In this document: piece by piece, positions 12,470-42,015 of the stretch
Layout of the letters: each line of letters opens with the position of its first letter
How positions within the stretch are numbered: the stretch's first letter is position 1
Assembly (NCBI GenBank): GCA_002773945.1
Contig: PEZT01000010.1
Span: forward strand, 4,028-68,027
DNA: 64,000 nt
Direction of reading: 5' to 3'
Source of the DNA: Candidatus Beckwithbacteria bacterium CG10_big_fil_rev_8_21_14_0_10_34_10
GTDB taxonomy: Bacteria > Patescibacteriota > Microgenomatia > UBA1400
Notes under the pieces: generated by a model
What the model was told of the DNA's origin: nothing
Databases searched by the model: none
What the model saw: only the letters and a program-made list of their open reading frames with translations
Program-made: the position numbers and the translations under genes

Positions 12470-13821
12470 TTTTCCTTTAACCTAAATTCTACTGGCTGAT
12501 CCGCATAAAACTGAGTAAAAGGAGGACAAATACTAACATCTTCATAGCTCTCCAATTCAATTACTGGTTTTCTCAAACCTTTTTTAATTTCTTGACCCCA
12601 GATAACACATTTAACATGATGGTCCAAATTTCTAAGATCATGAAGAAATTGTTTTTTCTCTCCATAAATTAAAACTAAAATAACAGCTAAAATTAAAGGC
12701 TTGAGTCCGGGAGCATAACTATAAATCTTTTTTAACCCCAAAGAAGCAGTTAATAAAATAGGAGGAAACAAATAGTACAACATATAATCGTGATACCAAG
12801 CAATATTAGGAAATATAACAAGGTGTAAAAGTCCAAATATCAAAAATAAAATAAGAAAATGATCTTTTGAAGAGATTTTTTTTCTTTTTATTAATTCTTT
12901 AAAATAGTTTAATAACCAAAACAGAGATAAAAATAGAACTGTTGAAGTTAGAAATGACCTGGCCCTAGAAAGCTCTAGCCTAAATAACTGAAGCAAAGTA
13001 AATGGCTGGTGTCCACCAAGCCCTTTAACTCTTCGGACAAAAGAACTGGCTAAACCACCATATATTTCTCCGGTTAATAAATATTGATGACCGACAATTA
13101 ACAAAAAACTACCTGCTGAAAGAGCAAAAAGACATATCCCAAAAAAAATTCTTGATTTTTTTAAGGGAAAAATTAAATAATGACCGACTAAAATTAAGCT
13201 TAAGTAAAATCCCGGCCATTCTATCATTTGGCAAACAAAAAGGCTTAATAAAATTAAAACAAAATACTTTTTCTTTTGCTTTTTCCGCCATATAAAATAT
13301 AAATAAACTGTTAAAAGAATAAACGGGGCAATTATAGGTTCAAATACAGGCAAACGAGCATAATACAAAAATAGAGGGGTAAAAATGGCTAATAAAAGAT
13401 ATAAAAAGCCTTGTTTTATTTGATAAATATTTTTAAGGATTAAATTAACAAGAAAAAGAAATAAAAGGCTGAATATTATACTTAAAAGCCGGGCTGACCA
13501 TTCAAAAATTCCAAAAATTTTAAAAAATAATGCTAGTAAAATTGGATAGAGAGAAGGATGGTAAGTATGATAAGTAAAGTCTTTGGCGCTTACCACCCCA
13601 TAGTTGGTAACTTGCCCCAATTTAGTTTCTAAAAATCCATAGCGAAGATAATTTTTGGCAATATTACTATAAAAAACATTATTAAATTCATGCTGTCCCC
13701 AAAACGGCTCATTAATATCTTTTCCCAGTAAAAAAAAGGCTAGGAGCAGAATTAAAAATAGAAAAAAATTGTTTTTAAATTTTGACCAGTTGTTTATAAA
13801 TTTCATGGGTTTTTTGAGCAC
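12466..13821 (-). CDS. polytopic membrane protein, possible GT-C-like
   Basis: N-terminal transmembrane segment followed by the loop EPFWGQHEFNNVFYSNIAKNY, then about 10 further helices. The true start may be Met6 (MKFINN). Confidence 0.5.
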   Translation of the reverse strand: MLKKPMKFINNWSKFKNNFFLFLILLLAFFLLGKDINEPFWGQHEFNNVFYSNIAKNYLRYGFLETKLGQVTNYGVVSAKDFTYHTYHPSLYPILLALFFKIFGIFEWSARLLSIIFSLLFLFLVNLILKNIYQIKQGFLYLLLAIFTPLFLYYARLPVFEPIIAPFILLTVYLYFIWRKKQKKKYFVLILLSLFVCQMIEWPGFYLSLILVGHYLIFPLKKSRIFFGICLFALSAGSFLLIVGHQYLLTGEIYGGLASSFVRRVKGLGGHQPFTLLQLFRLELSRARSFLTSTVLFLSLFWLLNYFKELIKRKKISSKDHFLILFLIFGLLHLVIFPNIAWYHDYMLYYLFPPILLTASLGLKKIYSYAPGLKPLILAVILVLIYGEKKQFLHDLRNLDHHVKCVIWGQEIKKGLRKPVIELESYEDVSICPPFTQFYADQPVEFRLKEK

Positions 13822-14743
13822 ACTTTTGCCAAGAGTATTTTTCTTTAACTAAATTGTATCCTTTTTGCCCCAATATATCTCTATTTTTATCTTTTAAGAC
13901 TCTTAAAATCGCTTTACTTAAGCCACTTGAGTCTTTAGGCTTGACTAAATAACCATTAATTCCATTTTGCACCATTTTTGGATTTTCTCCCACTCGAGTA
14001 ACAATTACCGGCAGCTTAGCCGCCCAAGCCTCAAGCAGAGTTAAAGGCTGGCCTTCAGATAAAGAAGGAAGAACAAAAACATGGCTGGCCTTATACTCCC
14101 TAATTAAATCCTCATGTTTAATCCCACCGGTTATTATTATTAACCTTACATGGGGAAATTCTTTTCTCACTTTTTTCATCGCTTTTCTTAAATAATTTAT
14201 TCCTTTAACAGGATCATTTCTGCCAACAAATAAAATTTTAAAAGGTTTTTCTTTTTTAACCTTTACCTTATCAAAATTCTCTACTTCAACCCCATTGGAA
14301 ATAACAGTTATATTTTTATTAACATTTCTATATTGTAAATAATTAGAGCTAACAGAAATTACCTGATCATATTTAATTCGGGTCAAAACTATATTTTCTA
14401 AAAATGCCCTTAAGGATCGAACTTTTAAATCAAGTAAGTTACTGCCGTGAACCGTAAAAACTATTGGAATCTTTAAAATTAGGCTTAAAATTTTTCCCGG
14501 CACACCCGACCAATAAGCATGAGCATGAATTAAATCAAATTTTTCTTTTCTATTTAACCACCAAGCCTGCGGGATTACCCATAAACTCCACAAAAAACGA
14601 ATTATAATATTAGCCCTTGGACTATGAAGAAGATAATATTTAACTTTGGATTTCTTCTCTAGGATTCTTTCTAAATTTTCAATCTGAATTTGAGCTCCAC
14701 CAATAAAAGGATACCAAGCATCAATTAAAACCAATATTTTCAT
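13775..14743 (-). CDS. GT4 family glycosyltransferase
   Basis: Motif LSEGQPLTLLEAWAAKLPVIVTRVGEN. Confidence 0.8.
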   Translation of the reverse strand: MKILVLIDAWYPFIGGAQIQIENLERILEKKSKVKYYLLHSPRANIIIRFLWSLWVIPQAWWLNRKEKFDLIHAHAYWSGVPGKILSLILKIPIVFTVHGSNLLDLKVRSLRAFLENIVLTRIKYDQVISVSSNYLQYRNVNKNITVISNGVEVENFDKVKVKKEKPFKILFVGRNDPVKGINYLRKAMKKVRKEFPHVRLIIITGGIKHEDLIREYKASHVFVLPSLSEGQPLTLLEAWAAKLPVIVTRVGENPKMVQNGINGYLVKPKDSSGLSKAILRVLKDKNRDILGQKGYNLVKEKYSWQKCAQKTHEIYKQLVKI

Positions 14744-16002
14744 TTTATTAAAACAAATAAATTTTTTAAATAAATTTCCAAGCTTACCTGATCATAAGGC
14801 AAAATTCTCTGCCAATATTTAAACATATTAGTTAAGTTAAGGATAATAAAGAAAGATAAAAAGACCCAGGTTTTTTTATCTCCTATTTTCTCAACAATTC
14901 TTTCCAGTCCACTACCTAAAAAAAGACTTAAAATGGGGTAAATATCAATAAAGGCCCTATTCCCAAAACTAGCTCCAAAAGACCAGTCATACCACGATGA
15001 GATCAAATATATAAACAAAAAAATCACCCCTAAAAAAGGAAAAAACAAAGCTTTGAATTTTTCTTTTAAACCTTTTATTCCAAGTAATCCTAGGAAAAAA
15101 ACAGGCGCCCAGAAAAACAAGCCTTTTCTAACAGAAAACAAAGTTTTAAATATTTTAGGACTTAAAAAATTAAAACCCTCTCCTTTATAAGAAAAAAGAA
15201 AAAAACTACCCGAAACATAATGCCAGTATAAAAACTGGGGCAAACATACAATTAAAAAAGAAAATAAGATAAAAAGTAAAGATTTGAAGTTTTTCTTTTT
15301 AATCAAAGGAAACAAAAGCAAACCAATAATTAGATTACTATTTCTAACAAGAAAAATTAGTCCCAATAGAATTCCTCCAAGAATGGAGTTTTTCAAATTC
15401 AATTCTTTAGGGTTCTTCTTGTTCTTATTATCCAAAAAATATAAAAAGCCGCTTATTAAAGAAAAAGAAAAAACATGACTCATTAAACTATCAAAAGTGG
15501 CATAATGAAATAAATTAGTCGCCAGTAATAAACTAACTAAGGTTAAGACTACAACATTTTTTGAATAATATTTTTGATAAAGTTTTAGTAAAAAAAACAG
15601 TCCTAGAAGTAAATAGAAAATTGCTCCTAAACCAACAAAATGCTGATAAATCATCGTATAGCCGGTTAAGGGCAATGAAAAAGCCAAAGAAACAAGGTGG
15701 CCTAGGAGGAAAAAAGGTGAAATTAACAAAGCTACCCCCAAAGAATATTTATTAATATTTTTTCCGGTTTCATTTAAATAATAAATGGCTGGATATTTTA
15801 AAGATTTAGCATCAGGTAAATATAAATCAGTCTTACTTAAACCAAAGTCCTTATAAATAAAAAAAGCCGGCAGATAACTATAGTAACCGGCGGCATCAGC
15901 CCGAATAGGATTTTTAACAAACTTATTCTTATAAATTATAAAGTAACCAATTAATAAGGTTAAAAAAGCAAAGCTTAAAAAACAAAATACTTTTTTATTC
16001 AT
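14740..16002 (-). CDS. polytopic membrane protein
   Basis: About 12 hydrophobic helices. Unknown family. Confidence 0.5.
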   Translation of the reverse strand: MNKKVFCFLSFAFLTLLIGYFIIYKNKFVKNPIRADAAGYYSYLPAFFIYKDFGLSKTDLYLPDAKSLKYPAIYYLNETGKNINKYSLGVALLISPFFLLGHLVSLAFSLPLTGYTMIYQHFVGLGAIFYLLLGLFFLLKLYQKYYSKNVVVLTLVSLLLATNLFHYATFDSLMSHVFSFSLISGFLYFLDNKNKKNPKELNLKNSILGGILLGLIFLVRNSNLIIGLLLFPLIKKKNFKSLLFILFSFLIVCLPQFLYWHYVSGSFFLFSYKGEGFNFLSPKIFKTLFSVRKGLFFWAPVFFLGLLGIKGLKEKFKALFFPFLGVIFLFIYLISSWYDWSFGASFGNRAFIDIYPILSLFLGSGLERIVEKIGDKKTWVFLSFFIILNLTNMFKYWQRILPYDQVSLEIYLKNLFVLIK

Positions 16003-17116
16003 CTTGCTTAACAGACCTTATGGCTAAATTTAACTTTCTAAAAATATAACTAACATCTTCCCTGCTATAAGAAGCGCTAATTGGTAAATTAATGACTGTT
16101 TTGGATAATAATAGGGCTTTAGGACATTTTTTTAGAAAAGAGCTATATATTTTTTGAGCAATAGGAGCTTTGTACCATAATCTATCAACAATAATGTTTC
16201 CTCTTCTTAAAGAGGCAACTATTTTATCTCTCACTGGAGCAAATTCAGGTTTTAGCCGAATAATAAAATGATAATAAGAAAGACTGCTATTTTCCTCTGG
16301 TTTTTGGGCAATAAATAAGTTGTTTCTCTTTATTTCCTCATAATACCATCGAGCCACTTTTTTTCTCTGGGCTACTTCTTGACCCAACCTATTAAAACCC
16401 TTCTCAAATAGAAAAAGGCTTAACTTACTTGGTCGATAATTATTTAGTTTTTGCGTCTCAATTTTAGGCAGATACTGTCGTCTTTTGATATCCAAAATGT
16501 TTTGATGGAGACCAGCTGTTTTAATTAATAAGCGCTTGGGGTATTTAAGTTCATCCTCCCCACCTTGATTTTCAATAAATTTTTTCTTAGTCAAAAGCAA
16601 ACAACCATTAATATTAGGGATTTGCTTATAAAGACTGAAAAGAATGGCACTCCCCTTATTACCAACAAAGTTTTTTCCAACCTTGCTAAACAAGGCATGG
16701 GCACAATCTTCAATAATAAATACTTTCTTTACTTTTTTTCTAATTTGACTAATATCAACTGGATTACCAAAAGTATGAATCACTACCAAACACTGGGTAT
16801 TTATTGGAATTTTTTCAATATCAAGATTAAAAGTATCTAGATTTACTTCAGTTAAAATTATTTTTTTTCCTGCTTTTTCAGCTGATTTAACTAAAGTCGG
16901 ACAAGTAAAGCCGGGAAAAGTAATGGTTTTATATGGTAAAGACTGAAACAAATAATAAAGAGCATTTCTCCCCCAGTTGAAGTAACTTTCTTTCCAATTT
17001 GTACCCAATTTAAGTCTCTTTTTTAGCAAAAGATAGGGAGAAACGGTTTTTTTATTCAAAACCTCTTCTACTAGACTAGAGGGATGGATTTTAAGATTAA
17101 GATCAAATTTACTCAT
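15995..17116 (-). CDS. DegT/DnrJ/EryC1/StrS-family PLP-dependent sugar aminotransferase (or related dehydratase)
   Basis: Collinear with the family core: THTFGNPVDI corresponds to LYGQPADM, IIEDCAHALF to VIEDAAQAHG, and SAILFSLYKQIP to the PLP-lysine region. Confidence 0.6.
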   Translation of the reverse strand: MSKFDLNLKIHPSSLVEEVLNKKTVSPYLLLKKRLKLGTNWKESYFNWGRNALYYLFQSLPYKTITFPGFTCPTLVKSAEKAGKKIILTEVNLDTFNLDIEKIPINTQCLVVIHTFGNPVDISQIRKKVKKVFIIEDCAHALFSKVGKNFVGNKGSAILFSLYKQIPNINGCLLLTKKKFIENQGGEDELKYPKRLLIKTAGLHQNILDIKRRQYLPKIETQKLNNYRPSKLSLFLFEKGFNRLGQEVAQRKKVARWYYEEIKRNNLFIAQKPEENSSLSYYHFIIRLKPEFAPVRDKIVASLRRGNIIVDRLWYKAPIAQKIYSSFLKKCPKALLLSKTVINLPISASYSREDVSYIFRKLNLAIRSVKQDE

Positions 17117-18257
17117 GAATAACCTTATTATATCCTTTCTTAGTTTGGCCAGCTATTATTTTCCAATCATATTTTTGAGCCAGTTTAATTCCTTCTTTTT
17201 GTTTTATTCTGTAAGTTTTTTCATTTTTTAAAAGGATATCAATTTTTCTTTCTAGATCTACAGCATCTTTTTTCTTAAATAAAAACCCGCCTTCCCCATT
17301 ATTGGTTATCTCTTTATTAACTTCAATATCGGCAATAACATAAGGCACCCCGCAACTTAAAGCCTCAATCGTTACCAATCCAAAACCCTCAATTACTGAA
17401 GGCAAACAAAACACGTAGCTTTCAGCTAGCAACCTCAGTAATTTATCTCTGTCCAAATCTTTAAAAAACTTAACTTTTTTAAAAAGATTCTTTTTGTTAA
17501 CTAAATCTTTTAGTTTTTCTTCTTCTGGCCCTTGGCCAACGATAAATAGTTGAAACTGGGGATATTTTTTTAAAAGTTTTTCAAAAGCTAAAATTAAATC
17601 ACTCACTCGCTTGTATTTTACTAACCGGCTAATACAAATAATTCTTTTTTTCTTTTTTTCTATTCTTAGACTCATTTCTTTAAGCTTTTTAGACTCCACC
17701 CCGCCGTAAACAATTCTAATTTTACTTTTTAAAATTCCTTCTTTTAAAAGCTTATTTTGGGTAGATTTGCTTAAAGAAATTATTCCAGTCCAAGGAAGTT
17801 TTAAGCTAATTCTTTCAATAATCTCCCCAAATATGCCACTTAAACCAAAGTTTTGGAGCCATTTTCCTTTTAAAACATCAGGCCACCAGGAAATTTTAGG
17901 TTTGTTTTTAAAAACACCAAGAAAAAAAGCTGGTAAAAAACTAACCACATTAGAACCTTCAATTAAATCAAAATCTATTTTTAAACCTTTTGAAAAGGCA
18001 GTCAAAATAAACCCAATTCTCCCAAAGATTGAAAAAAAGCTGGCTTCTACCCTTGATGTTTTTGGACCACAAGGATAAACAACAATCTTATTAATCCTGG
18101 TTTTTTCTCTTAAGCTTTGGGTTTTCCGGCAAAGCACAATTACCTTGTTTTCTTTAGCCAGATTTTTAGCCATAAAATATGTTCTTGCTTCTACACCACC
18201 GGTAAATTTAAGCTGAGAAGAATCTGGAAAAAACTCAGTTAAAAGAAGAATTTTCAT
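17109..18257 (-). CDS. GT4 family glycosyltransferase
   Basis: Motif EGFGLVTIEALSCGVPYVIADIEVNKE. Confidence 0.8.
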   Translation of the reverse strand: MKILLLTEFFPDSSQLKFTGGVEARTYFMAKNLAKENKVIVLCRKTQSLREKTRINKIVVYPCGPKTSRVEASFFSIFGRIGFILTAFSKGLKIDFDLIEGSNVVSFLPAFFLGVFKNKPKISWWPDVLKGKWLQNFGLSGIFGEIIERISLKLPWTGIISLSKSTQNKLLKEGILKSKIRIVYGGVESKKLKEMSLRIEKKKKRIICISRLVKYKRVSDLILAFEKLLKKYPQFQLFIVGQGPEEEKLKDLVNKKNLFKKVKFFKDLDRDKLLRLLAESYVFCLPSVIEGFGLVTIEALSCGVPYVIADIEVNKEITNNGEGGFLFKKKDAVDLERKIDILLKNEKTYRIKQKEGIKLAQKYDWKIIAGQTKKGYNKVIHE

Positions 18258-18607
18258 TCCTTTTTCTTTTTTGGTTTATCTTTTAAGGCTATCTCTCTTA
18301 CCAATTGACTAATTTCTTCCCGAAGATTCTCTATTATTACATTAGTCCTAAAAACTAAATAAAACAAAAGAGCAATGGAAATATATATTATGGCGTCTAC
18401 TCCCCGACCAATCCCTAAAAGACTAGCCCAATAATTGCTAAAACCGGGATAAAAAATAGTAAACAAAGCGGCTAACCACAAAGCCAGCCAAAAAAGAAAA
18501 GACCCAAAATTAATTGTTCCCTCTTTAAAACGAAAGTAAACTCGGGAAACAGCAAAAAGCAAAAATAAACTTAATAGTATTTGAACTGGTAAAAAAATTA
18601 TATTCAT
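18254..18607 (-). CDS. DUF2304-family small membrane protein
   Basis: 117 aa with 3-4 transmembrane helices. Signature LGIGRGVDAIIYISIALLFYLVFRTNV followed by a C-terminal charged coiled-coil tail. This family characteristically accompanies Dpm1-like GT2 genes. Confidence 0.65.
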   Translation of the reverse strand: MNIIFLPVQILLSLFLLFAVSRVYFRFKEGTINFGSFLFWLALWLAALFTIFYPGFSNYWASLLGIGRGVDAIIYISIALLFYLVFRTNVIIENLREEISQLVREIALKDKPKKKKE

Positions 18608-19305
18608 CTTCCCAACCTTAAGACCAATTTTACCAAAACTTTTATCCCATTTAAATTAGATTGGCCTTTGGCTAGAGAATAAGGGGTGTAAATTACCCTT
18701 ATAGGAACTTCACAAAACTTCAGTTTATTTTTCCTAATCTGATCAAAAAATTCTGAAGAAACCTCCATTTGCTGAGTTCTTAACTTAATTTTATTAATTG
18801 CTTTCCTGGAAAAAGCCCGAAATCCAGACTGAGAATCAGTCGGATAAATCCCAAAGAATAAAAAAGTAACCAAATCACTTAACTTTAAAATAATTCTTCT
18901 TAATACGGGAATTTTATTTTTAACCTCTAAAAATCTACTTCCTATGACAACATCAGCTTTCTTTTTCATAATTGGCCCAATTATCTTTTCTATATCTTTA
19001 GAATCATGCTGACCATCGCTGTCCATTGTTACTACCACATCTACTTTTTTCTTTCTTCCATACTCCAATCCTGTCTGAAGAGCGCCACCCAAACCCCGAT
19101 TAATTACATGTTTTAAAACCGCTACTCCTTCTTTTTGAGCCTTCTTAGCAGTTTTATCAACGGATGCATCATCAATAACTACAATTTCTGAAGTTAATTT
19201 AAGGTTTTTTAATTCTTTTTTTAAACTTTTTAAAACTCCCTCAATTACTTTTTCTTCATTAAAGGCAGGCAAGACTACTAAAAGTTTTGTTTTTTTACTT
19301 TTCAT
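18604..19305 (-). CDS. GT2 polyprenyl-phosphate sugar synthase (Dpm1-like, soluble type without C-terminal transmembrane segments)
   Basis: LPAFNEE, VIDDASVDKT, DSDGQHD and SGFRAFS motifs. Confidence 0.75.
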   Translation of the reverse strand: MKSKKTKLLVVLPAFNEEKVIEGVLKSLKKELKNLKLTSEIVVIDDASVDKTAKKAQKEGVAVLKHVINRGLGGALQTGLEYGRKKKVDVVVTMDSDGQHDSKDIEKIIGPIMKKKADVVIGSRFLEVKNKIPVLRRIILKLSDLVTFLFFGIYPTDSQSGFRAFSRKAINKIKLRTQQMEVSSEFFDQIRKNKLKFCEVPIRVIYTPYSLAKGQSNLNGIKVLVKLVLRLGR

Positions 19306-19320
19306 TTATTTTCTAAACAC

Positions 19321-20487
19321 CTAAGCAATCCAAAACCCCCGAACAAAAAGAGCCGTATTAATAACCAGCAAAGTCCCGGAGACAACAAGAATAACTAATT
19401 TTAACCACTTGTTTTTAATCCCGTCTAAAATAAAATAAAGAGGAAAAATTAAACTTATGTATCTTGGCATAGACGATAAGTTACCTGTTAAAGTCGGTAG
19501 AAGGAAAGAACCAAAACTGTAAATTAAATATGGTTTTTTAATCTTTTTAATTACTCCCCAAATAAGCAGACCTAAAACTAACAAGGAAATAAAGAATTCT
19601 TGAGTAATAGTAAAAAACAAAGCCCCATTGCCCTTAATAGTAAACATCATTTTCAAGTACCGCCAAACAACTTGGTGAAAAAGAATTAATTTATCAGTCT
19701 GGCGGGAGGCGCCAAAGCCGCTTTGAACTTGAGCAAAAAAGAAAGGATCACTAAAGTGCTTGTTTAAATAAAAACAAAAAAGCATAAACCCGCTTATACT
19801 TAATAAGGTTAAAAATATAGACTTTAAGTATAAAATAATTTTACTTTTCTCCTTTTTTTCTCTTGATTGATAATATTCATATAAAATGGCTGGAGCGAGA
19901 AAAATTCCCACTAGCCTGGTAGCTGAGGCTAAAGAAGCGAATAAAACCGCCTTAAACCACTGCTTTTTATACAAACCCAAAAAACATAGAATTACAAAAA
20001 GAAAAAATAGTGATTCTGAATAAAGAGCCCCAAAATAAAAACTGGTTGGAAAAAGAAGTAAGGATAACAAAGTAAATTTACTCTCTTTTATCTTTTCTAA
20101 CTTAATTAACTGACGAAAATAATATAAAGCAAAAACAAAAACTAGGTTGCTAATAATTAAACCAGAATAAAGATAATTATCGAAAATTTTAGAAAACCAT
20201 CTTATTGTTAAAGGATATAAAGGGAAAAAAGCCTGAATTAAACCGGTTCCTACATAACCTTTTTCCGCAATAGTAATATAGTGAGGACCGTCAAAATTTG
20301 CCCACTGCCAAATAAACTGACTAGAAGAAAGATTTGATAGAATTGAATCCCAATAGGGAAAACTAGGCCTGAATGGCAGCCATCTTCCCGCTAAAAAGGC
20401 AACTACTAAAAGACCTATCCGCCAAACCAAAAACAACTTAACTGAAGGTAAAATATCTTTAACTAATTTTTTTACATCTTTCATCAA
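19321..20487 (-). CDS. PIG-V/GPI18-like mannosyltransferase family (GT76-like) membrane protein
   Basis: Loop motif NFDGPHYITIAEKGYVGTGLIQAFFPLYPL matches the conserved FDxxHYxxIAexGY...AFFP signature of the Mannosyl_trans2 family. About 9 helices. Confidence 0.6.
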   Translation of the reverse strand: MMKDVKKLVKDILPSVKLFLVWRIGLLVVAFLAGRWLPFRPSFPYWDSILSNLSSSQFIWQWANFDGPHYITIAEKGYVGTGLIQAFFPLYPLTIRWFSKIFDNYLYSGLIISNLVFVFALYYFRQLIKLEKIKESKFTLLSLLLFPTSFYFGALYSESLFFLFVILCFLGLYKKQWFKAVLFASLASATRLVGIFLAPAILYEYYQSREKKEKSKIILYLKSIFLTLLSISGFMLFCFYLNKHFSDPFFFAQVQSGFGASRQTDKLILFHQVVWRYLKMMFTIKGNGALFFTITQEFFISLLVLGLLIWGVIKKIKKPYLIYSFGSFLLPTLTGNLSSMPRYISLIFPLYFILDGIKNKWLKLVILVVSGTLLVINTALFVRGFWIA

Positions 20488-20495
20488 TTTTTTAA

Positions 20496-22244
20496 TTACT
20501 TTTTCTTTCTAGAAATTGACCAGCCCTTAACTGGTATTTTAGAAAACAATTTTATTATCCCTAAAACTAAAACTAGACTCATAACAGTTATTAAGTTTCC
20601 TATTATTCTCGCTGGAGTTCTCTCGGTAAACTTAACTACTATTTTATGTTTACCGGCTGGCACTCTTACACCTATTAAGCCCTGATTATCTGGCCTATCA
20701 TATTTTATTTCTGCTCTTTTCCCATCAATAAATACTTGCCAACCAGGAAAATAGGCAGTATGTTCCCAAATATTAGTTGCTTTGGGAACATCAACTTCAT
20801 AAATATGGCTATTAGTTTTCCAAAGCAACTCTTTAAAAACAACCAGGCCAGAATCACTGGTTAATCTTGATTTAAACTCAGAGATATTGTGTTCTGAAAA
20901 CCAACGAGGCGTATGCTCATGTTGAGTTGAAGTAGTAAAAAGAAAATCATAATAATACATATCTTGTTTTTTCTCCCATAAAAATGGTTTAGTAAACGGC
21001 TGGCAATAAACAAGAGAAACAAAAGCTAAAATAATTCCTATCCCTTTATACTTCTCGCTGACCACTACCGCTAAAACAGCCACTCCCAACATTACTACCC
21101 CTAAAAACCGCCAAGGAAACTGCAAATAGCCCAAAAGGGGGATTAACCTCCAAATAAATAAAGAAAAAGGAAGCATTAAGAAAACTCCACTTAAAAAAAC
21201 AGCTAAACCTCCTAATAAAAAAGCCAGATTTAATTTCTTGTCTTTCTTTTTTTTACCAAAAAAACGACTTAATCCCCATTTAATTAAAATCAATAACGCT
21301 AATAAAAATATTACTAAGTGAACCGGTCCTATTTGAAAAGACATTGTATCCCCATCTCCAAGAACAGAAAAACCATACTGCCATTTAGAATAAATTAATT
21401 GCTTTAAATAAACAAAGTGGTCAGGGAAAAAACTTTGCTGGTCAAAAGCCTCCAGCTTGATTGAATTTTGTTCAAAATAAGCTGGAATCCAAAAAAAGGA
21501 AGTTAATAAAAATCCCAATATTAAACCAATCAAACCTAAGTTTACAAATTTTAATTTTTCCTTCTGACCCTCCTTTTTATAAACATAAAAATAATAAAGA
21601 AAAATTAAAGGAGTAAAAAGCATTACCATAATATTGTGCGACAAAGAAAAAAGGGCAGTCACTACAACTAATCCTAAAAACCTTAACCTGGATTTTTTCT
21701 CAAATAAAAGATCAAGAAAATATAAAACCCCTGGAAACAAAGCAAAGGTTAAATTTTCCCCCACTATTCCCCTCACATAAATATCTAAAAACTGATAAGG
21801 AGCACTAAGATAGAAAATAGACCCCAGAAAGGCAGCTAAAGAAGAAAAATGCCTTTTTAACCAAAGATAGAAAAACAGACCAGAAAAAAGATAACTGGAA
21901 AAAATTATAATTTTTAGACTGTTCTCTACTCCGAATCCAACCACAATCAGAGGATAAGCTAATATGTTTGGCAGGGGATAAAGATAATTAAAAACCGGGT
22001 AGCCAAATTTGTGATTAAGATTTTTGGCCCATCGAGGCGGAATATGACTATCTTTAATAGATAAATAATAATTAGCAATCCTGGCTAAATGGTTTTCCAA
22101 ATCATGCCCCCTAAATATTCCCGGTTTAAAAAAAGCTCTAAGATTAAAAAAACAAATAACTAAAATTAGAACAATAAATAAATGCTTGATTTTAAATTTA
22201 AAGTTAATTTTAGATAAATTTAAATTAGTTAATAATTTTTTCAT
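20496..22244 (-). CDS. YfhO/PTPS-related-like GT-C-type membrane protein, paralog A
   Basis: N-terminal FRGHDLENHLARI...PPRWAKNLNHKFGYP motif and a C-terminal soluble domain with YFPGWQVFIDGKRAEIKY...VPAGKHKIVVKF, resembling the YfhO C-terminus. Confidence 0.55.
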   Translation of the reverse strand: MKKLLTNLNLSKINFKFKIKHLFIVLILVICFFNLRAFFKPGIFRGHDLENHLARIANYYLSIKDSHIPPRWAKNLNHKFGYPVFNYLYPLPNILAYPLIVVGFGVENSLKIIIFSSYLFSGLFFYLWLKRHFSSLAAFLGSIFYLSAPYQFLDIYVRGIVGENLTFALFPGVLYFLDLLFEKKSRLRFLGLVVVTALFSLSHNIMVMLFTPLIFLYYFYVYKKEGQKEKLKFVNLGLIGLILGFLLTSFFWIPAYFEQNSIKLEAFDQQSFFPDHFVYLKQLIYSKWQYGFSVLGDGDTMSFQIGPVHLVIFLLALLILIKWGLSRFFGKKKKDKKLNLAFLLGGLAVFLSGVFLMLPFSLFIWRLIPLLGYLQFPWRFLGVVMLGVAVLAVVVSEKYKGIGIILAFVSLVYCQPFTKPFLWEKKQDMYYYDFLFTTSTQHEHTPRWFSEHNISEFKSRLTSDSGLVVFKELLWKTNSHIYEVDVPKATNIWEHTAYFPGWQVFIDGKRAEIKYDRPDNQGLIGVRVPAGKHKIVVKFTERTPARIIGNLITVMSLVLVLGIIKLFSKIPVKGWSISRKKK

Positions 22245-23271
22245 AAATTCTCCTCGTTTCTTGGGCAGTTTTCTGCCAGGAAAATTGCTTGGACTGTTTT
22301 AAGCCTTTTTTGCTTAAACCTATTAATTTACTTTTATTATTCCATAAATCAATAATTTTTTTCTCCAATTCTCCTTTATTTTGAGGATTAAAATACTCAA
22401 CCGCTTGACCACCCACTTCAGGCAAACTGGCTTTATTAGAAGATAAAACCGGACAACCGGATTGCATTGCTTCTAAAACCGGCAAACCAAAACCTTCATA
22501 AAAAGAGGGCTGAATATACAATCTTGCCAGATTATATATTTTTACCAAATCATCTATGACTACAAATCCTAAAAGCTTAACTCTCTCTTTTAATTTAAGG
22601 TCTTTTATTAATCTTTTTATTTCTTTTAGCTCTGCTAAACTCTCATTCTCAAAAGCGCTGCCTGCTAAAACTAAATTAATATCATTAAACCTATTTTTAA
22701 CTTCTCCTAAAGCTCTAACTAATAAGCTGACATTTTTATTCCAATTCAAATCACCCACATAAAAAATAAAATTATCAGGCAGGCTATATTTCTTCCTTAT
22801 TTTTTCAAGTTTCTCCTTCTCCTTAAGTTGCCTGAATTCCTCTGAAGCAGCCAAATAAATAGAAAAAATTTTGTCCTTGGGAAAACCAATAATGTCTTCA
22901 ATATCTTTTTTTGAGTTTTCAGAGTCAGTCATGATTGCTGAAACTGATTTAACAATCCTTTTTTGGATTAACCATTTTAATTTTCCTCTTAATCCTGAAG
23001 GATAATTTTTAGAAAATTTTAAAGGAATAAGGTCGTGAATTGTCACCACTACTGGTTTCTTCCTAGGCCATGGCAAAGTGAAGAAAAAAGGGTCAAAATA
23101 TGGAAGATGAATTAAGTCAAAAGAAAATTCATCATTTTTATCTTTTTTTAAAAAATATTGATTATTTCCCTTTAATTCTTTTAAGGCTTTAAAAAGGTTT
23201 AAAGCATAAAACCCCACTCCTCTTTTTAGAGCCCCTGGATGAAGTCTTGAAATATCAAGTAGAACATTCAT
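22225..23271 (-). CDS. GT4 family glycosyltransferase
   Basis: Motif EGFGLPVLEAMQSGCPVLSSNKASLPEVGG. Confidence 0.8.
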   Translation of the reverse strand: MNVLLDISRLHPGALKRGVGFYALNLFKALKELKGNNQYFLKKDKNDEFSFDLIHLPYFDPFFFTLPWPRKKPVVVTIHDLIPLKFSKNYPSGLRGKLKWLIQKRIVKSVSAIMTDSENSKKDIEDIIGFPKDKIFSIYLAASEEFRQLKEKEKLEKIRKKYSLPDNFIFYVGDLNWNKNVSLLVRALGEVKNRFNDINLVLAGSAFENESLAELKEIKRLIKDLKLKERVKLLGFVVIDDLVKIYNLARLYIQPSFYEGFGLPVLEAMQSGCPVLSSNKASLPEVGGQAVEYFNPQNKGELEKKIIDLWNNKSKLIGLSKKGLKQSKQFSWQKTAQETRRIYEKIIN

Positions 23272-24824
23272 TATTTTGAACTATACCTCTCCGTAATTAT
23301 AATTCCAAACTCCCTTTGTTCCAAAAGCAGTTTATCCTTAACTAAAGACAAATACCACCCTTCAAATCTTTCTTTAAAACTGTCTGGCTCGTAAATTACA
23401 AAAAATTCATCAGAATTTTGGTTAAATTTCACTTCAGGTAAACCTAATTTCTTAGTTTTTAGATTAAAAAGGTATTCATAGGCTGTTGGTTGATTATTCG
23501 GCGGTCTAACCCAAATCTCCTCGCCGGGATTTAAGGCACCTAAAACATAATCCACTGTCTGATTTAATTGAAAAAGAGAATAGCCCCATTCCGAAGGCTT
23601 CAGAAAAACTATTTGCCTCCCTAAATTGGCCGAGAAAAATATTCCTAAAAAAAAGGCAGCAAATATCTGGCTGTTTTTACTGCCTTGAAAAAACTTTGCC
23701 AATAAATAACTAATCATTAAGAAAAATGGCAAAAACAAAGAAACTAAGTAGTAGTCAAAAAACAAACCATAGTTCCCTTTATAAAAAAGGTAAGAAATAC
23801 CTGGTATAAAAAGCCAAAGAAATACAAGCAACAATCCCTTTTTCTCTTCTTTCCTTTTTTGCATCATAAAGATTGATCCCAACACAACAATAACCAAAAA
23901 AACCAAATCAAAAAATAAAATAGTTTGAGACTTGGCAAATCTAAGCTTAACTCCCAAACTGTCAACCAACCATCGAAAGATAAAGGCCGGTCTTGTTTTC
24001 CAAACCGCTTCTAGACTAGTTTTGTTAGCATCATTGACAAAATTATTTATAACTGCCCTAGAGATTAAATGCTCATGACGAAAGTCAAATACTATTTGAG
24101 GAAAAAAGGTAATTAAAAATAAAACCGCTGTTAGAATTATTTGTTTAATGGTTATCTTTTTAAAAACAAAAATAAAACTGTAAATCGCCACCACTAAGGC
24201 AATAAAAAAAGCATTAGCTAATTCCGTTTGCAAACTTAAACCTACCAACAGACCCACCAAAGGAAAGTATTTAGTTTCACCTTTAAAACTTTTAAATAAA
24301 AATAAAAATATAAGCAAACTCATTGGGATTAAAGGCGTAATGTTAGAAAGCTGACGAGAAAAATTAATGGCATAACTTGAAAAACAAAGTAAAAAAGCGG
24401 CTATTTTCCCTGCTTTTTCGTTAAAAAGCTCTTTTCCTAAAAGATAAATAAACCAAATGCTTAAACTGGAAAAAAAAGCCAGAAATAAAGCGGGAATAGC
24501 TGGATTCCCTCTCCCTAAAAAATAAAAAGGTAAAATTAAGTAATAAAAAAATGGGCCTAGAAAAACCCCTTGAATACCGGTAGTTGGTCCAATTAAAAAG
24601 GGCTTACCATATTCGATTAATCCTTGAATAACTAAAGCATCTCTTCCTTGATCGTAAGCAAAATGTAAATTATTACCCAAATTCCAGCCTCTTAGAAAAA
24701 ATCCTACAAACACTAAGACAAAAATATAAAGAGGTGTTTTAAACCACGACTGGTTAATCTTTTTTAAGCAGAAAAAAAACTTTTGGCTTATTTTCTCAAA
24801 TATATTTTTGTCCATTTTATCCAT
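23271..24824 (-). CDS. polytopic membrane protein with C-terminal extracytoplasmic domain; paralog of 48394-50013
   Basis: Shared loop motif FAYDQGRDALVIQGLIEYGKPFLIGPTTG, compared with WFDQARDAVIVQELLHGDLKLQGPSASG in 48394-50013. About 12 helices. Confidence 0.55.
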   Translation of the reverse strand: MDKMDKNIFEKISQKFFFCLKKINQSWFKTPLYIFVLVFVGFFLRGWNLGNNLHFAYDQGRDALVIQGLIEYGKPFLIGPTTGIQGVFLGPFFYYLILPFYFLGRGNPAIPALFLAFFSSLSIWFIYLLGKELFNEKAGKIAAFLLCFSSYAINFSRQLSNITPLIPMSLLIFLFLFKSFKGETKYFPLVGLLVGLSLQTELANAFFIALVVAIYSFIFVFKKITIKQIILTAVLFLITFFPQIVFDFRHEHLISRAVINNFVNDANKTSLEAVWKTRPAFIFRWLVDSLGVKLRFAKSQTILFFDLVFLVIVVLGSIFMMQKRKEEKKGLLLVFLWLFIPGISYLFYKGNYGLFFDYYLVSLFLPFFLMISYLLAKFFQGSKNSQIFAAFFLGIFFSANLGRQIVFLKPSEWGYSLFQLNQTVDYVLGALNPGEEIWVRPPNNQPTAYEYLFNLKTKKLGLPEVKFNQNSDEFFVIYEPDSFKERFEGWYLSLVKDKLLLEQREFGIIITERYSSK

Positions 24825-24833
24825 CCTGATAAA

Positions 24834-26060
24834 TTATAAACTAAAAGCGATTCTTTTTCCCAGCCCAACCGCATAATTAACTGCTCTGTCCCAGGGATAA
24901 ATTTGGCTAGTATTGGCTAAATAAAAGTTTTTTATTGGTGTTTTAAAACTGGGAATATCCTTATAGCTGTCAACTTTAAATATTGGCTGAGTAAAAGGCT
25001 CTTTAATAATCTGATAATTTTTAATCCATGAAGAATTAAAATCCTTATTAATCCTTTTTAAATAAGACACCCACTTTTTGAATATTTCCTCATCTTTTTG
25101 TTTAAATAGTTTTGACTTTCTTGAAGTATAACTGACTAAATAAAGAGGATGAAGATTTTTATAATACTTTTTACTAACTAAATTAGTATGCTGAACACAC
25201 CCCACAAAAGGAATATTATTGTCATTAATATTCATCCAATAAGCCCAATTGCTTAAGGGTTTTTTTAGGGTCAACAAAACCAAAACCGTCCCAAAATATT
25301 CAATTTTTTCTAATTTATTTTTGTACTTTTCTGGTAAATCAGAAGCCAATTTAAGAAAAGCTGGATTAGCACCAGTAAAAATAGTTTTATCAAAAGACCC
25401 TAGTTCTTTCAGGGTCTTTACCTCTTCATTTAGAATAATCTTCCCTTTATTCCTTTTTATTTCTGAAACTAGCTTATTAATAATTATTTGGAAGCCTCCT
25501 TTTGGGTAGCCTAAAAATCTGGAACGGCGGTTAACTCTGGCCCACATCCAAGTCATGGAAATAAAAGAATAAAAATTTCCAAATTTTTTAATCATCAAGG
25601 GGCGCCAAATAACTTTCCAGCTTTCTTGACCCATATATTTTTTCAGCCAGAAAGCAGCTTTTTTACCTTCGAAAAAACGGTAATCTTTATTTAGCAAAAG
25701 ATACAAAGAAGTTAAACCCGTCCTTATTCGGTTTATAAAAGAAAGGGGAGAAAATTTAAGCAAATCTACTGGAGAAGAAAAAGGATGCATTTTTCCTTGA
25801 TAGAAAATAGGGGCCCCACAATCCTTCCATAACCAAATATTATTTAACCCTAAATCATCAGTTAACTGCTGGATATGTTTATCGTCTTTAAAAATATGAT
25901 GATAAAACCTTTCTAAATACCAATCACCAGCCCTAAATCCTGAAGCCAAACCACCAGCAAATTTATCTTTTTCAAAAATGTAAACCTTATGGCCCTTTTT
26001 ACTTAGATAATAAGCGGCTGTTAAACCAGTAATACCAGCTCCAACAATGGCTATTTTCAT
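24834..26060 (-). CDS. FAD/NAD(P)-binding oxidoreductase (amine-oxidase/phytoene-desaturase-like Rossmann fold)
   Basis: N-terminal dinucleotide-binding motif KIAIVGAGITGLTAAYYL...IFEKDKFAGGLASGF. Confidence 0.65.
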   Translation of the reverse strand: MKIAIVGAGITGLTAAYYLSKKGHKVYIFEKDKFAGGLASGFRAGDWYLERFYHHIFKDDKHIQQLTDDLGLNNIWLWKDCGAPIFYQGKMHPFSSPVDLLKFSPLSFINRIRTGLTSLYLLLNKDYRFFEGKKAAFWLKKYMGQESWKVIWRPLMIKKFGNFYSFISMTWMWARVNRRSRFLGYPKGGFQIIINKLVSEIKRNKGKIILNEEVKTLKELGSFDKTIFTGANPAFLKLASDLPEKYKNKLEKIEYFGTVLVLLTLKKPLSNWAYWMNINDNNIPFVGCVQHTNLVSKKYYKNLHPLYLVSYTSRKSKLFKQKDEEIFKKWVSYLKRINKDFNSSWIKNYQIIKEPFTQPIFKVDSYKDIPSFKTPIKNFYLANTSQIYPWDRAVNYAVGLGKRIAFSL

Positions 26061-26065
26061 TTTGA

Positions 26066-26845
26066 TTATTTAGTTTTCTTTCTGTCTAAATTCAAGTATT
26101 TAAAAAAAGCGAGGGGAAAGTGTAAGCTAGAAAAAAGGGCAAATAGAAAACCATAAATTCCATCAACAAAACCCTTGTGTCTAATAAAAAGAGAAAAAAA
26201 TGTAAAAATTGGTTTTACCAATAAATAGTCTCCGGCTTTAAGTAATTTATTGTCCCTCTTTTCAAGTAATTTTAAAGCAGTTTCCAAAGTGTAAATATTA
26301 GCTTTTTTTAAGTAAGAAGCTAGGTTTGGAGAAGCTAAATGAATTAAGGGATTTTTTAAATAATCTACTTCTCCTTCAACTCTAATCTGTTCATGAACCG
26401 TTTTACAGGGAAAGCTGGCTTTTCCTTTTTTAACCAAGCGAATAACATAATCAGGATATTGACCTCCCTTTTTCAACCACCTTCCAAAAAAATAGTTTTT
26501 TCTAGGAATATAATAGCCGTTAATATTCTCAATTCCCCCACTAATCTTTGTTTTTATTTCTTTTCCTAGTTCCTGACTCACTCTTTCATCAGCATCCAAC
26601 TGTAATATCCAAGAACCTGAAGCTTTTTCTAAAGCCATTTGTTTATTTTTATGAAACATTAACTTGTTAGAAGTTTTTATTATTCTCGCTCCTAGGTTCC
26701 TGGCAATTTCCCTGGTTTTGTCAGTTGAAGAACCATCAATAATTACTATTTCATTGGCCAGATCTTCAATTGAACTAAGACAATCCTTAATATTTTTTTC
26801 TTCATTGTGGGTAGCTAAAACAACTGAAAGTTTATTTTTTCTCAT
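26066..26845 (-). CDS. GT2 family glycosyltransferase (DADE-type)
   Basis: LSVVLATHNEEKNI, IIDGSSTDKT and QLDADERVS motifs. Paralog of 28387-29193. Confidence 0.75.
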   Translation of the reverse strand: MRKNKLSVVLATHNEEKNIKDCLSSIEDLANEIVIIDGSSTDKTREIARNLGARIIKTSNKLMFHKNKQMALEKASGSWILQLDADERVSQELGKEIKTKISGGIENINGYYIPRKNYFFGRWLKKGGQYPDYVIRLVKKGKASFPCKTVHEQIRVEGEVDYLKNPLIHLASPNLASYLKKANIYTLETALKLLEKRDNKLLKAGDYLLVKPIFTFFSLFIRHKGFVDGIYGFLFALFSSLHFPLAFFKYLNLDRKKTK

Positions 26846-26855
26846 CTTTTATTAA

Positions 26856-27539
26856 TCACCAATTAAAAAACCTATATTTTAGCAAGAAAAAAATGGCTTT
26901 AATTCCATCCAGCCAGGTTATTTTTTTTCCTTCATCATATTCTCTCCCAGAGTAAGAAATGGGAACTTCATAAATTCGCTTCTTTTTTCTAAGTATTTTA
27001 GCCGTTACCTCTGGTTCAAAACCAAAACAATTTTCTTTTAAATCTAGGGACAATAATAGTTTTCTAGGGATTACTTTATAGCCTACTTCCATATCAGAAA
27101 GCGTGGTGTTAAAAAGAACATTAGTACTAAAAGAAAGGAATTTATTTCCCAACATGTGCCAAAAAAACATATTTCTTCTTTCCCCCAAAAAACGAGAACC
27201 ATAAACCACCTCAGTTTTTTCTTCTAAAATCGGCTTTAAAAGCTTTTTATAATCTCTAGGATCATATTCTAAATCTGCATCCTGAATTAAGATATAATCA
27301 CCGGTAGCCGTTTTTATTCCCTGACGAATAGCATAACCTTTGCCTTGATTTTTCTCATAATCAACCAGTTTTATGCCTGGCATTTTCTTTAAAATATTTT
27401 TAGTTTTATCAGTTGATCCATCATTAACTATAATAATCTCTTTTTCTACTTCATTAATTTTTTCTTTTTTAACTCGCTTAATAATTTCTTCAATAGTATT
27501 TTCCTCATTAAAACTAGGAATAATAATGGAAAGCTTCAT
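26856..27539 (-). CDS. GT2 polyprenyl-phosphate sugar synthase (Dpm1-like)
   Basis: Start refined to [13 protein letters not shown], giving an ATGA overlap with the upstream stop. Motifs [10 protein letters not shown] and QDADLEYDP. Confidence 0.7.
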
Positions 27540-28387
27540 TTTAAATAATCTCCTTTTATTTCTGGCTTTTCCGCTACACAACAAATACAAGCAGAGTAAA
27601 ACCACCTCATCTTAAAAACATTATACAATAATTTTAGTCTTTGTCCTGGTCTGGTTAAAACAAAGTCTGCCTGGGAGTTTTTTCTAAATTGAGGAAAGTC
27701 TAACCATAAACCAATACTTTTTTGGGGATGTGAATCATCTTTATAAAAACATTCCCTGATATCAAAACCAGCCCTTCTAATAAAACCAATCAATTCTCTT
27801 CTGGAATAATGATGTTCATAAAAATTCATCTTTGTCATTTTCCTTTTTTCCTTTAATCCCAAGCCCTCAAATAATATTCTTAAGGGAGTTTTTAAAACAA
27901 CCTTCAGCTGATAAAGTGTTTGCAAAATAATTCTCTGCCAATTATTATAGGGAACTTCAATAATTGCTGTTCCTCTATCCTTTAACACCCTATATGCTTC
28001 CTTTAATACTGTTTCTGGCCCTTTTTCAAAATGCTCAATCACCCCCAAGGAAATGTAAGCATCAAAGCTATTATTTTTAAAAGGTAGTTTTTTAACATCA
28101 GCTAAATTAATCTTTATTAATGGAAAAAGCTTTTTCAACTTTAGGATTGCATATTTATTATTATCAACCCCAGTTATATTAAACCCTTTTTTGGTGAAAT
28201 AAATTACCCATTTACCTAAACCACAGCCGGCCTCTACTATTCGCTGTTTTTTTTGAAGATATTTTTCAAAGATGGGCAGCAAACCATCACTCTTACATAA
28301 TTCCAACTCCTTCTTATAGTTAGATTTCTGCCAATAACTTTTCCAGAGATTATTCTTAGAAACTGGAACAAAAACCTTGTAAGCCAT
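27536..28387 (-). CDS. class I SAM-dependent methyltransferase
   Basis: Motif [12 protein letters not shown] and motif [13 protein letters not shown]. Confidence 0.8.
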
Positions 28388-38358: not shown

Positions 38359-38409
38359 TTTAAACTTTTTAATTTACATTTTATTAATATTTGTCTTTAT
38401 TTAAAATTA

Positions 38410-42011: not shown

Positions 42012-42015
42012 ACTT

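Follow-up and report, generated by a model that had tools for sequence, protein, structure and literature searches.

A predicted DUF2304-partnered polyprenyl-phosphate sugar synthase encoded beside a PIG-V-like GT-C glycosyltransferase in a Beckwithbacteria genome

The 64,000-nucleotide stretch analyzed here (the window) comes from Candidatus Beckwithbacteria bacterium CG10_big_fil_rev_8_21_14_0_10_34_10, a bacterium of the Microgenomates group of the Candidate Phyla Radiation (CPR). On its minus strand lie, in order, genes for a polytopic membrane protein (19321-20487), for a family 2 glycosyltransferase (GT2) that lacks transmembrane (TM) helices (18604-19305), and for a small membrane protein of the DUF2304 family (18254-18607). 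We consider it very likely that the GT2 and DUF2304 proteins form a complex that makes a polyprenyl-phosphate-linked sugar on the inner face of the membrane. The whole chain, in which that product is flipped across the membrane and used as a donor by the adjacent membrane protein, a predicted outer-face transferase of the GT-C type, seems to us somewhat probable. The role of DUF2304 as a synthase partner is already published and carries no novelty: in light of the literature on GacI/GacJ, PpgS/Rv3632 and WpsA/WpsB, the central idea of a first-pass annotation of this DNA is a rediscovery of established biology, and the mechanism itself is not new. The new points are modest, namely the wide presence of the pair in CPR bacteria and DPANN archaea, its coupling to a PIG-V-like GT-C within a larger conserved cluster, and the clade-specific nature of the DUF2304 linkage.

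In the mechanism that we propose, the GT2 would be attached to the membrane on the cytoplasmic side by way of its own amphipathic helices and the long C-terminal helix of the DUF2304 protein, and the complex would move one sugar from a UDP-sugar to polyprenyl phosphate. That sugar would most likely be GlcNAc, GalNAc, or a pair of 4-epimers of this kind, and the DUF2304 protein would orient and activate the GT2 while taking no part in catalysis. The polyprenyl-phosphate sugar would then be flipped across the membrane, where the PIG-V-like GT-C may take it as the donor on the outer face, the acceptor being, on this proposal, a surface glycoconjugate built by the flanking family 4 glycosyltransferases (GT4). 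To this scheme the present analysis contributes the assignment of the proteins to families and folds, the order of the genes, and the conservation of their linkage.

The GT2 and DUF2304 proteins

The three open reading frames (ORFs) lie where the first-pass annotation had placed them and contain the motifs that it quoted. The membrane protein gene ends 15 nt before the GT2 gene; the GT2 and DUF2304 genes overlap by 4 nt, also as previously noted, and the DUF2304 gene overlaps the downstream GT4 gene (17109-18257), again by 4 nt. On the plus strand, the ORFs here are antisense and short (64-103 aa). A scan of positions 13000-26500 for promoters and terminators gave no more matches than chance would (50 promoter-like sites, with 47.9 expected) and defined no operon boundary, a result compatible with co-transcription of these densely arranged genes.

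The GT2 matches PF00535 (Table 1) and had been described as missing the C-terminal helices that are present in a paralog at 4101-5039. A hydropathy scan bears this out, as there is no hydrophobic segment in the GT2 (233 aa) and there are two, near residues 225 and 265, in the paralog (312 aa). Amphipathic helices are found at approximately residues 133-153 and 215-233 of the GT2. Its DxD motif, D95-x-D97 (DSDGQH), has both aspartates invariant in an alignment of 29 orthologs, and H66, N69, G71, and G73 are invariant as well. The best NCBIfam match is PpgS, the polyprenyl-phospho-N-acetylgalactosaminyl synthase (NF058614, 174.3 bits), and the alignment spans the full length (residues 10-230 of the protein, positions 4-222 of the 226-position profile); no curated family is nearer, but the GT2 itself is not a PpgS equivalog. 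Its paralogs in the window reach only 47-71 bits against PpgS. The next curated matches are AglJ (a haloarchaeal dolichyl-phosphate-hexose transferase), PgfS, and ArnC. Its nearest solved relatives are polyprenyl-phosphate glycosyltransferases throughout: the Pyrococcus dolichyl-phosphate-mannose (Dol-P-Man) synthase PfDPMS (5mlz, E = 1.2e-14, 57.7 bits), GtrB (5ekp), and ArnC. Because the match to 5mlz stops at residue 235 of 374, the GT2 has no counterpart of the C-terminal ~140 residues, which we take to be the TM domain of that synthase.

The neighboring 117-aa protein had been called DUF2304-type with a charged tail, and this call stands. It matches PF10066 with 79.7 bits against a gathering cut-off of 25.5 (residues 8-111 aligned to positions 2-105 of the 106-position profile), includes LGIGRGVDAIIYISIALLFYLVFR, and carries the tail KDKPKKKKE; NCBI already names the identical protein "DUF2304 domain-containing protein". 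Hydropathy segments begin at residues 1, 31, and 63. In an AlphaFold2 (AF2) model, with a predicted local distance difference test score (pLDDT) of 76.6, a helical hairpin (7-29 and 34-52) is followed by a short helix (54-64) and a long helix (70-109) that leaves the membrane and continues, on the cytoplasmic side, as a charged and conserved segment, NVIIENLREEISQLVREIALKDK. As modeled, the three TM helices, short lateral helix, and long fourth helix match the four-helix layout of WpsB. A family profile found no match in the PDB at E<=10, so the DUF2304 family is without a solved structure. Comparison with the C-terminal TM helices of the GT2 at 4101-5039 (hhalign probability 0.1%) ruled out one other origin for the protein, as a copy of those helices that had become detached.

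By analogy with its homologs, we predict that the DUF2304 protein is an activating partner of the GT2. GacJ belongs to DUF2304 and is encoded directly downstream of gacI; the two proteins co-purify in CHAPS, and the catalytic efficiency of GacI is raised by GacJ (bioRxiv 10.1101/180810). The same preprint describes Mycobacterium tuberculosis Rv3632 as a GacJ homolog that is co-transcribed with PpgS and stimulates it (bioRxiv 10.1101/180810). WpsB likewise activates WpsA, and a WpsB-WpsA fusion is active (PMC10821137). The first-pass annotation had offered the DUF2304 protein as either an anchor or a partner of the soluble synthase. These homologs, together with the linkage described below, support the part about a partner; the simple anchor did not hold up, since GacI and WpsA reach the membrane without their DUF2304 partners (bioRxiv 10.1101/180810; PMC10821137), which argues for a role in activation and orientation. 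Two further likenesses that it had drawn, to Dpm2/Dpm3 and to GtrA, fell away: PF10066 was the sole family in a Pfam scan of the protein at E<=0.01, with no GtrA, DPM2, or DPM3 match, and GtrA is a flippase.

Linkage in relatives and the extent of the cluster

To place the pair in other genomes we took two samples. A DUF2304-based genome scan found 260 relatives, of which the best 80 loci were analyzed; these are mostly from Microgenomates-group CPR bacteria, with others from WWE3, Uhrbacteria, Portnoybacteria, and DPANN archaea. A GT2-based metagenome search found at least 588 matches, of which 80 were analyzed. Both samples are biased toward relatives of the queries, and the counts below are therefore not unbiased genome-wide frequencies.

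A GT2 gene lies directly upstream of the DUF2304 gene, on the same strand, in 67 of the 75 loci that have at least 700 bp of upstream sequence. These upstream GT2 proteins have a median length of 227 aa, and every complete one matches the window GT2 with an E-value of 1e-43 or better. In five further loci one or two inserted genes separate the pair, with the GT2 no more than 2.3 kb away, for a total of 72 of 75. In the remaining three, no PpgS-like GT2 was found in the upstream sequence examined, which amounted to 893 bp in locus L075, 3.1 kb in L046 (a Methanocaldococcus metagenome-assembled genome, MAG), and 5.0 kb in L078 (a Woesearchaeota MAG). Approached from the GT2 side, among the 70 metagenome loci with a complete GT2 and enough downstream sequence, DUF2304 is directly downstream in 49 and further downstream in 4; a relaxed search recovered it in 7 of the 17 that were left, bringing the total to about 60 of 70. 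Apparent GT2-DUF2304 fusions in L127 and L133 were judged to be artifacts that arise when the longest ORF is called where frames overlap. Recurring as it does in dozens of independent genomes, the arrangement goes far beyond chance.

It had been suggested that DUF2304 accompanies TM-less Dpm1-like GT2 genes as a class. The co-occurrence is borne out within the PpgS/GacI-like clade, at the frequencies just given, and does not extend to such enzymes generally. Three other short, TM-less GT2 proteins of the window (26856-27605, 29190-29936, and 39942-40715) resemble lipid-phosphate-sugar synthases, have AglJ as their best match, and score 52-72 bits against PpgS; a DUF2304 neighbor is absent beside all three. 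DUF2304 is therefore associated with one clade of these enzymes.

The module had also been described as consisting of three genes, and here the extent was set too small: the conserved unit is larger. In Microgenomates loci the order is a short GT2 (like 26066-26845), a GT4 (like 22225-23271), the PIG-V-like GT-C, then either a GalE-like NAD-dependent epimerase of ~305 aa (most loci) or a 122-aa EamA/SMR-like protein with four TM helices (Curtissbacteria and WWE3), followed by the GT2, DUF2304, a GT4 (like 17109-18257), and further GT4 genes. The 17109-18257-like GT4 directly follows DUF2304 in 36 of 70 loci, with another glycosyltransferase there in approximately 15 more, and the 22225-23271-like GT4 precedes the GT-C in most Microgenomates loci. 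The PIG-V-like family is found upstream on the same strand in 35 of the 57 loci whose upstream sequence extends for at least 3.5 kb. In the window, a YfhO-like gene (20496-22244), which probably encodes a second GT-C, is inserted upstream of the PIG-V-like gene at a distance of 8 nt, an arrangement shared with a few Beckwithbacteria relatives; orthologs occupy its position in L014, L015, L021, L025, and L030.

Relatives carry additional genes between the GT-C and the GT2. The GalE-like epimerase (PF01370, E ~1e-58) is there in most Microgenomates loci, with two examples in Table 1. In WWE3/Curtissbacteria and DPANN loci, one or two EamA/SMR-like proteins of 114-132 aa are encoded immediately ahead of the GT2-DUF2304 pair; the DPANN loci L038 and L054 have two in tandem just before the GT2, which resemble ArnE/ArnF-type flippase pairs. 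We regard these small proteins as candidate lipid-phosphate-sugar flippases. An epimerase or an EamA/SMR-like gene in this position fits a path from UDP-sugar to lipid-phosphate-sugar, flipping, and use by a GT-C. When the window was queried by TBLASTN with the EamA/SMR-like proteins, GalE-like epimerases, and a DUF2142 protein of relatives, nothing significant was found.

The GT-C protein and the fate of the lipid-linked sugar

The 19321-20487 protein contains NFDGPHYITIAEKGY and AFFPLYPL and has approximately seven or more TM segments; its TTG start directly precedes an ATG, and the JGI gene call (P0121) is 387 aa. The first-pass annotation had assigned it to the PIG-V type and named PF04188 as the check. 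The window protein itself did not pass, having no Pfam match, PF04188 included, even at E<=10; its family did. Of its 2,461 homologs at E<=0.001, several are named "Gpi18-like mannosyltransferase" by JGI and many carry precomputed PF04188 matches. Among 55 aligned homologs (40-68% identical), 35 match PF04188 (best E = 2.2e-12), and 25 of the 55 also match PMT_2 and 12 match GT87. A profile of the family found only a chance match among PDB sequences (DosC, E = 0.12). The AF2 model is confident (pLDDT 93.6; predicted TM-score, pTM, 0.93), and a fold search places it clearly in the GT-C fold, where its nearest structural relatives are mostly users of monosaccharide-phosphate-lipid donors. Given the homologs that match PF04188 and the confident model, "divergent PIG-V-like GT-C" is a fair label: the family is nearest PIG-V/GT76, and the protein is not a demonstrated PIG-V member.

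GT-C enzymes carry a catalytic acid in the region after the first TM helix (TM1). The 19321-20487 protein has both the fold and, in its first extracytoplasmic loop, an acidic residue that is conserved: F65, D66, G67, and Y70 are invariant there and H69 is nearly so (F65-D66-G67-x-H69-Y70, after TM1), and Asp66 is likely the catalytic base. With a GT-C fold and PIG-V as the closest family, the earlier suggestion that the upstream enzyme uses the lipid-phosphate sugar on the outer face is reasonable. We infer the identity of the sugar, the flippase, the acceptor, and the part of 19321-20487 as consumer of the GT2 product.

A number of observations weigh against the chain as we have drawn it. As to the sugar, the GT2 scores far below the PpgS equivalog cut-off of 370 bits. 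As to the GT-C, there is the failure of the window protein against Pfam noted above; its linkage is confined to Microgenomates-type loci, and in 22 of the 57 loci no member of the PIG-V-like family is within reach, other membrane proteins such as DUF2142 in L005 taking its place. At least 20 other polytopic, mostly GT-C-like proteins are encoded in the window, any of which is a possible user of the product. No flippase gene adjoins the GT2/DUF2304 module: the only recognizable candidate in the window for flipping a lipid-linked sugar is the Wzx at 58499-59956, about 38 kb away, whose assignment to the module is speculative, and the DUF2304 gene is the only window ORF of 110-180 aa, so that no GtrA-sized gene is evident. 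The experimental support for such pairs stems from outside the CPR and DPANN lineages. The GT4 that overlaps DUF2304 and is retained in 36 of 70 loci also fits a lipid-phosphate N-acetylhexosamine (HexNAc) serving as a primer.

This last point leads to an alternative modeled on the lactococcal Wps system, in which the lipid-phosphate-HexNAc would be a primer, the 17109-18257 GT4 and the flanking GT4 enzymes would elongate it in the cytoplasm, Wzx would flip it, and the GT-C would transfer the whole unit. The WpsA/WpsB product, GlcNAc-P-C55, is indeed elongated by WpsC, which is encoded directly downstream, then flipped by Wzx and used by the GT-C WpsJ (PMC10821137). The overlapping and conserved GT4, with some other glycosyltransferase in its place in the ~15 additional loci, makes such a scheme plausible here, and a Wzx is present in the window. 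That Wzx is, however, remote from the module, the small EamA/SMR-like genes beside the GT2 in relatives suggest flipping of a monosaccharide-lipid, the structural relatives of the GT-C mostly take monosaccharide-linked donors, and the GT4 could equally build the acceptor glycan. We consider the primer scheme unlikely, though it is the main rival to the chain proposed above.

The setting of the module raises another question. The window has a G+C content of approximately 30% and carries nearly all of its genes on the minus strand, and its annotated portion is mostly glycosylation machinery: the polytopic proteins already mentioned, which include five PMT_2 matches and three YfhO/PTPS_related paralogs, many GT4 and GT2 genes, the one Wzx flippase, and a block of sugar-nucleotide genes. 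The GT2/DUF2304 pair could thus be a shared supplier of lipid-phosphate sugar to several GT-C proteins of the island, the YfhO-like and PMT_2-like ones included, with the adjacency to the PIG-V-like gene a result of dense packing. There is precedent in Lactococcus lactis, where one flippase serves three GT-A/GT-C pairs (PMC8035078), and the 22 loci without the PIG-V-like family would be accommodated. We judge this account to be decidedly improbable, as the PIG-V-like family recurs on the same strand and in a fixed order in 35 of 57 loci over several Microgenomates lineages, which exceeds the expectation from packing, and other GT-C genes of the window adjoin short GT2 genes of their own (29190-29936 with 29917-31647, and 39942-40715 with 38410-39945).

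The first-pass annotation had favored mannose, and in its literal form held that a Dpm1-like polyprenyl-phosphate-mannose synthase, anchored by DUF2304 as by DPM2/DPM3, serves a true PIG-V-type mannosyltransferase. In its favor, the solved structure nearest to the GT2 in sequence is that of a Dol-P-Man synthase (5mlz), and the closest Pfam family of the GT-C relatives is that of the PIG-V mannosyltransferases. Against these stand the score of 174 bits for PpgS, a GalNAc enzyme, compared to 57.7 bits for PfDPMS, a GalE-like epimerase rather than a GDP-mannose enzyme as the conserved neighbor in relatives, and the absence of Pfam matches to DPM2 or DPM3 for DUF2304 and to PF04188 for the window GT-C. 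The characterized DUF2304-partnered synthases, moreover, all take UDP-GlcNAc or UDP-GalNAc. The literal model is in our estimation highly improbable, and a HexNAc is more likely than mannose as the sugar of the GT2, because PpgS is the nearest curated family, the characterized enzymes of this kind use UDP-HexNAc donors, and the neighbor in relatives is of the GalE type.

Returning to the preferred chain, from inner-face synthesis through flipping to the adjacent GT-C, a broader version may be put forward as a speculation that we think improbable. In Microgenomates (and, with other partners, in DPANN archaea), a GacI/GacJ-type synthase might have been joined to a prokaryotic PIG-V/GT76 branch in a cluster of 6-8 genes that builds a lineage-wide surface glycoconjugate of these ultra-small episymbionts, possibly lipid-anchored, with the GT-C perhaps using a polyprenyl-phosphate-HexNAc donor. 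If true, this would be the first function for a GT76-like enzyme of bacteria, with implications for the origin of the eukaryotic glycosylphosphatidylinositol (GPI) mannosyltransferases.

The principal features are collected in Table 1. The 17109-18257 GT4 is probably part of the same pathway as the GT2/DUF2304 pair.

Table 1. Principal features of the window and of relatives' loci discussed in the text
Feature	Position	Strand	Basis
TM-less GT2, 233 aa, PpgS/GacI/WpsA-like	18604..19305	-	PF00535 E 5.8e-26; PpgS NF058614 E 2.5e-51
DUF2304 / GacJ-WpsB-Rv3632-type small membrane protein, 117 aa	18254..18607	-	PF10066 E 2.2e-22
Polytopic GT-C-fold glycosyltransferase, 388 aa, nearest family PIG-V/Gpi18 (PF04188, GT76)	19321..20487	-	fold model, homologs
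GT4 glycosyltransferase, 382 aa	17109..18257	-	PF00534 E 1.1e-40
PTPS_related/YfhO-like polytopic protein, 582 aa	20496..22244	-	PF10131 E 1.7e-12; YfhO C-terminal region E 5.4e-06
GT4 glycosyltransferase, 348 aa	22225..23271	-	PF00534 E 4.8e-32
Wzx-type flippase, 485 aa	58499..59956	-	PF13440 E 2.4e-50; PF01943 E 1e-24
GalE-like epimerases of relatives	L001 3331-4317; L014 3388-4305		PF01370
EamA/SMR-like genes of relatives	L029 3804-4172; L038 3607-3969, 3906-4304; L054 2735-3088, 3085-3429		4-TM

We also wish to record several other genes of the window, all on the minus strand. Just downstream of the 17109-18257 GT4 is a homolog of DegT/DnrJ/EryC1-family aminotransferases (15995-17116, E = 3.5e-24), and after it comes a polytopic protein of 420 aa (14740-16002) that has no Pfam match; this hints at the involvement of an amino sugar. 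A flavin amine-oxidase-like FAD protein (24834-26060; PF01593, E = 8.6e-24) is found amid the glycosyltransferase genes. The YfhO-like protein at 20496-22244 has PTPS_related/YfhO-like paralogs at 29917-31647 and 59938-61653 (30-33% identical), and the former is directly followed by the short, TM-less, AglJ-like GT2 at 29190-29936, which suggests a further GT-C/GT2 pairing without DUF2304. Six paralogous polytopic proteins of ~510-570 aa, with 27-38% mutual identity, are encoded at 31634-39945 (five in tandem) and 55898-57583, and look like an expanded GT-C-like family. Finally, five genes in a row at 40696-44341 encode an NTP_transferase, a HAD-like phosphatase, a GHMP kinase, a SIS isomerase, and a second NTP_transferase. 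This set resembles a nucleotide-diphosphate (NDP)-heptose pathway (GmhA/HddA/GmhB/HddC-type), something that would not usually be expected in a CPR genome.

The cell-envelope glycans of CPR bacteria are almost unstudied. The results above allow a confident functional annotation of a DUF gene and two neighbors in one such genome, and indicate that, beyond the Firmicutes and Actinobacteria, CPR bacteria and DPANN archaea commonly have the GacI/GacJ-type two-subunit synthase. The cluster offers a tractable entry point to CPR glycans, since the E. coli membrane assays used for GacI/GacJ and WpsA/WpsB can be applied to the GT2-DUF2304 pair.

Comparison with known systems

A cytoplasmic GT-A with a separate TM protein, a flippase, and a GT-C is a recognized variant of the three-component glycosylation system (PMC8035078). 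Positions 18254-20487 encode together a lipid-phosphate-sugar synthase and a GT-C, the mark of multi-component transmembrane glycosylation. For systems of this kind, complex formation, stimulation of activity, the lipid-phosphate-HexNAc product, and its use by a GT-C come from the literature on homologs, and are carried over to the window by analogy.

One close comparison is with GacI/GacJ/GacL. The gacI and gacJ genes are often adjacent or fused across bacteria, the GacI product is beta-GlcNAc-P-undecaprenol, and GacL is a GT-C that uses this lipid, a gacL mutant accumulating it and losing the GlcNAc side chains (bioRxiv 10.1101/180810). In both systems a TM-less GT2 is directly followed by a DUF2304 protein of ~113-117 aa with three TM helices, and a pair for a polyprenyl-monophosphate sugar is joined in the same cluster by a GT-C acting outside, as predicted here from the genes alone. 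The systems differ in that GacL is reported to be PMT_2-like (PMC8035078), whereas the GT-C family here is nearest PIG-V/GT76; in addition, no Wzx is adjacent here, and the host is a CPR bacterium.

With PpgS (Rv3631), Rv3632, and Rv3779 of M. tuberculosis, which provide the GalN substituent of arabinogalactan, the window shares the best curated full-length match of its GT2. The UDP-Gal/GalNAc 4-epimerase Rv3634c is encoded near ppgS (PMC5389812), and in most relatives the cluster itself includes a GalE-like gene. On the other hand, the GT2 score is far under the equivalog level, the GT-C Rv3779 is encoded far from ppgS while the GT-C here is adjacent, and TBLASTN found no such epimerase in the window.

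In the Lactococcus polysaccharide pellicle system (WpsA/WpsB/WpsC/WpsJ), as here, a GT2 and DUF2304 bicistron is followed by a cytoplasmic glycosyltransferase; epaI-epaJ and wpsA-wpsB have been reviewed as the same gene pair (PMC8327497). The published AF2 complex places the long fourth helix of WpsB, at residues 93-115, against residues 58-87 of WpsA (PMC10821137), and our model of the window protein, compared against the published description, has the same layout of helical hairpin, short lateral helix, and long fourth helix. If the GT2 is numbered as WpsA is, the equivalent interface would lie between DUF2304 residues ~89-111 and the GT2 segment around 58-87, which contains H66, N69, G71, and G73. 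In the Wps system, lipid-phosphate-GlcNAc primes a repeat unit.

Finally, the eukaryotic DPM1/DPM2/DPM3 complex and PIG-V (GPI mannosyltransferase II) present the same general plan, with a TM-less GT2 held by small membrane subunits and a GT-C on the far side of the membrane. The differences are that DUF2304 has no homology to DPM2/DPM3 detected with Pfam, that the donor sugar is probably not mannose, and that the GPI context of PIG-V is missing here, no GPI pathway gene being found among the window proteins scanned against Pfam. The GT-C family nonetheless shares the PF04188 signature with PIG-V, the window protein itself giving no match.

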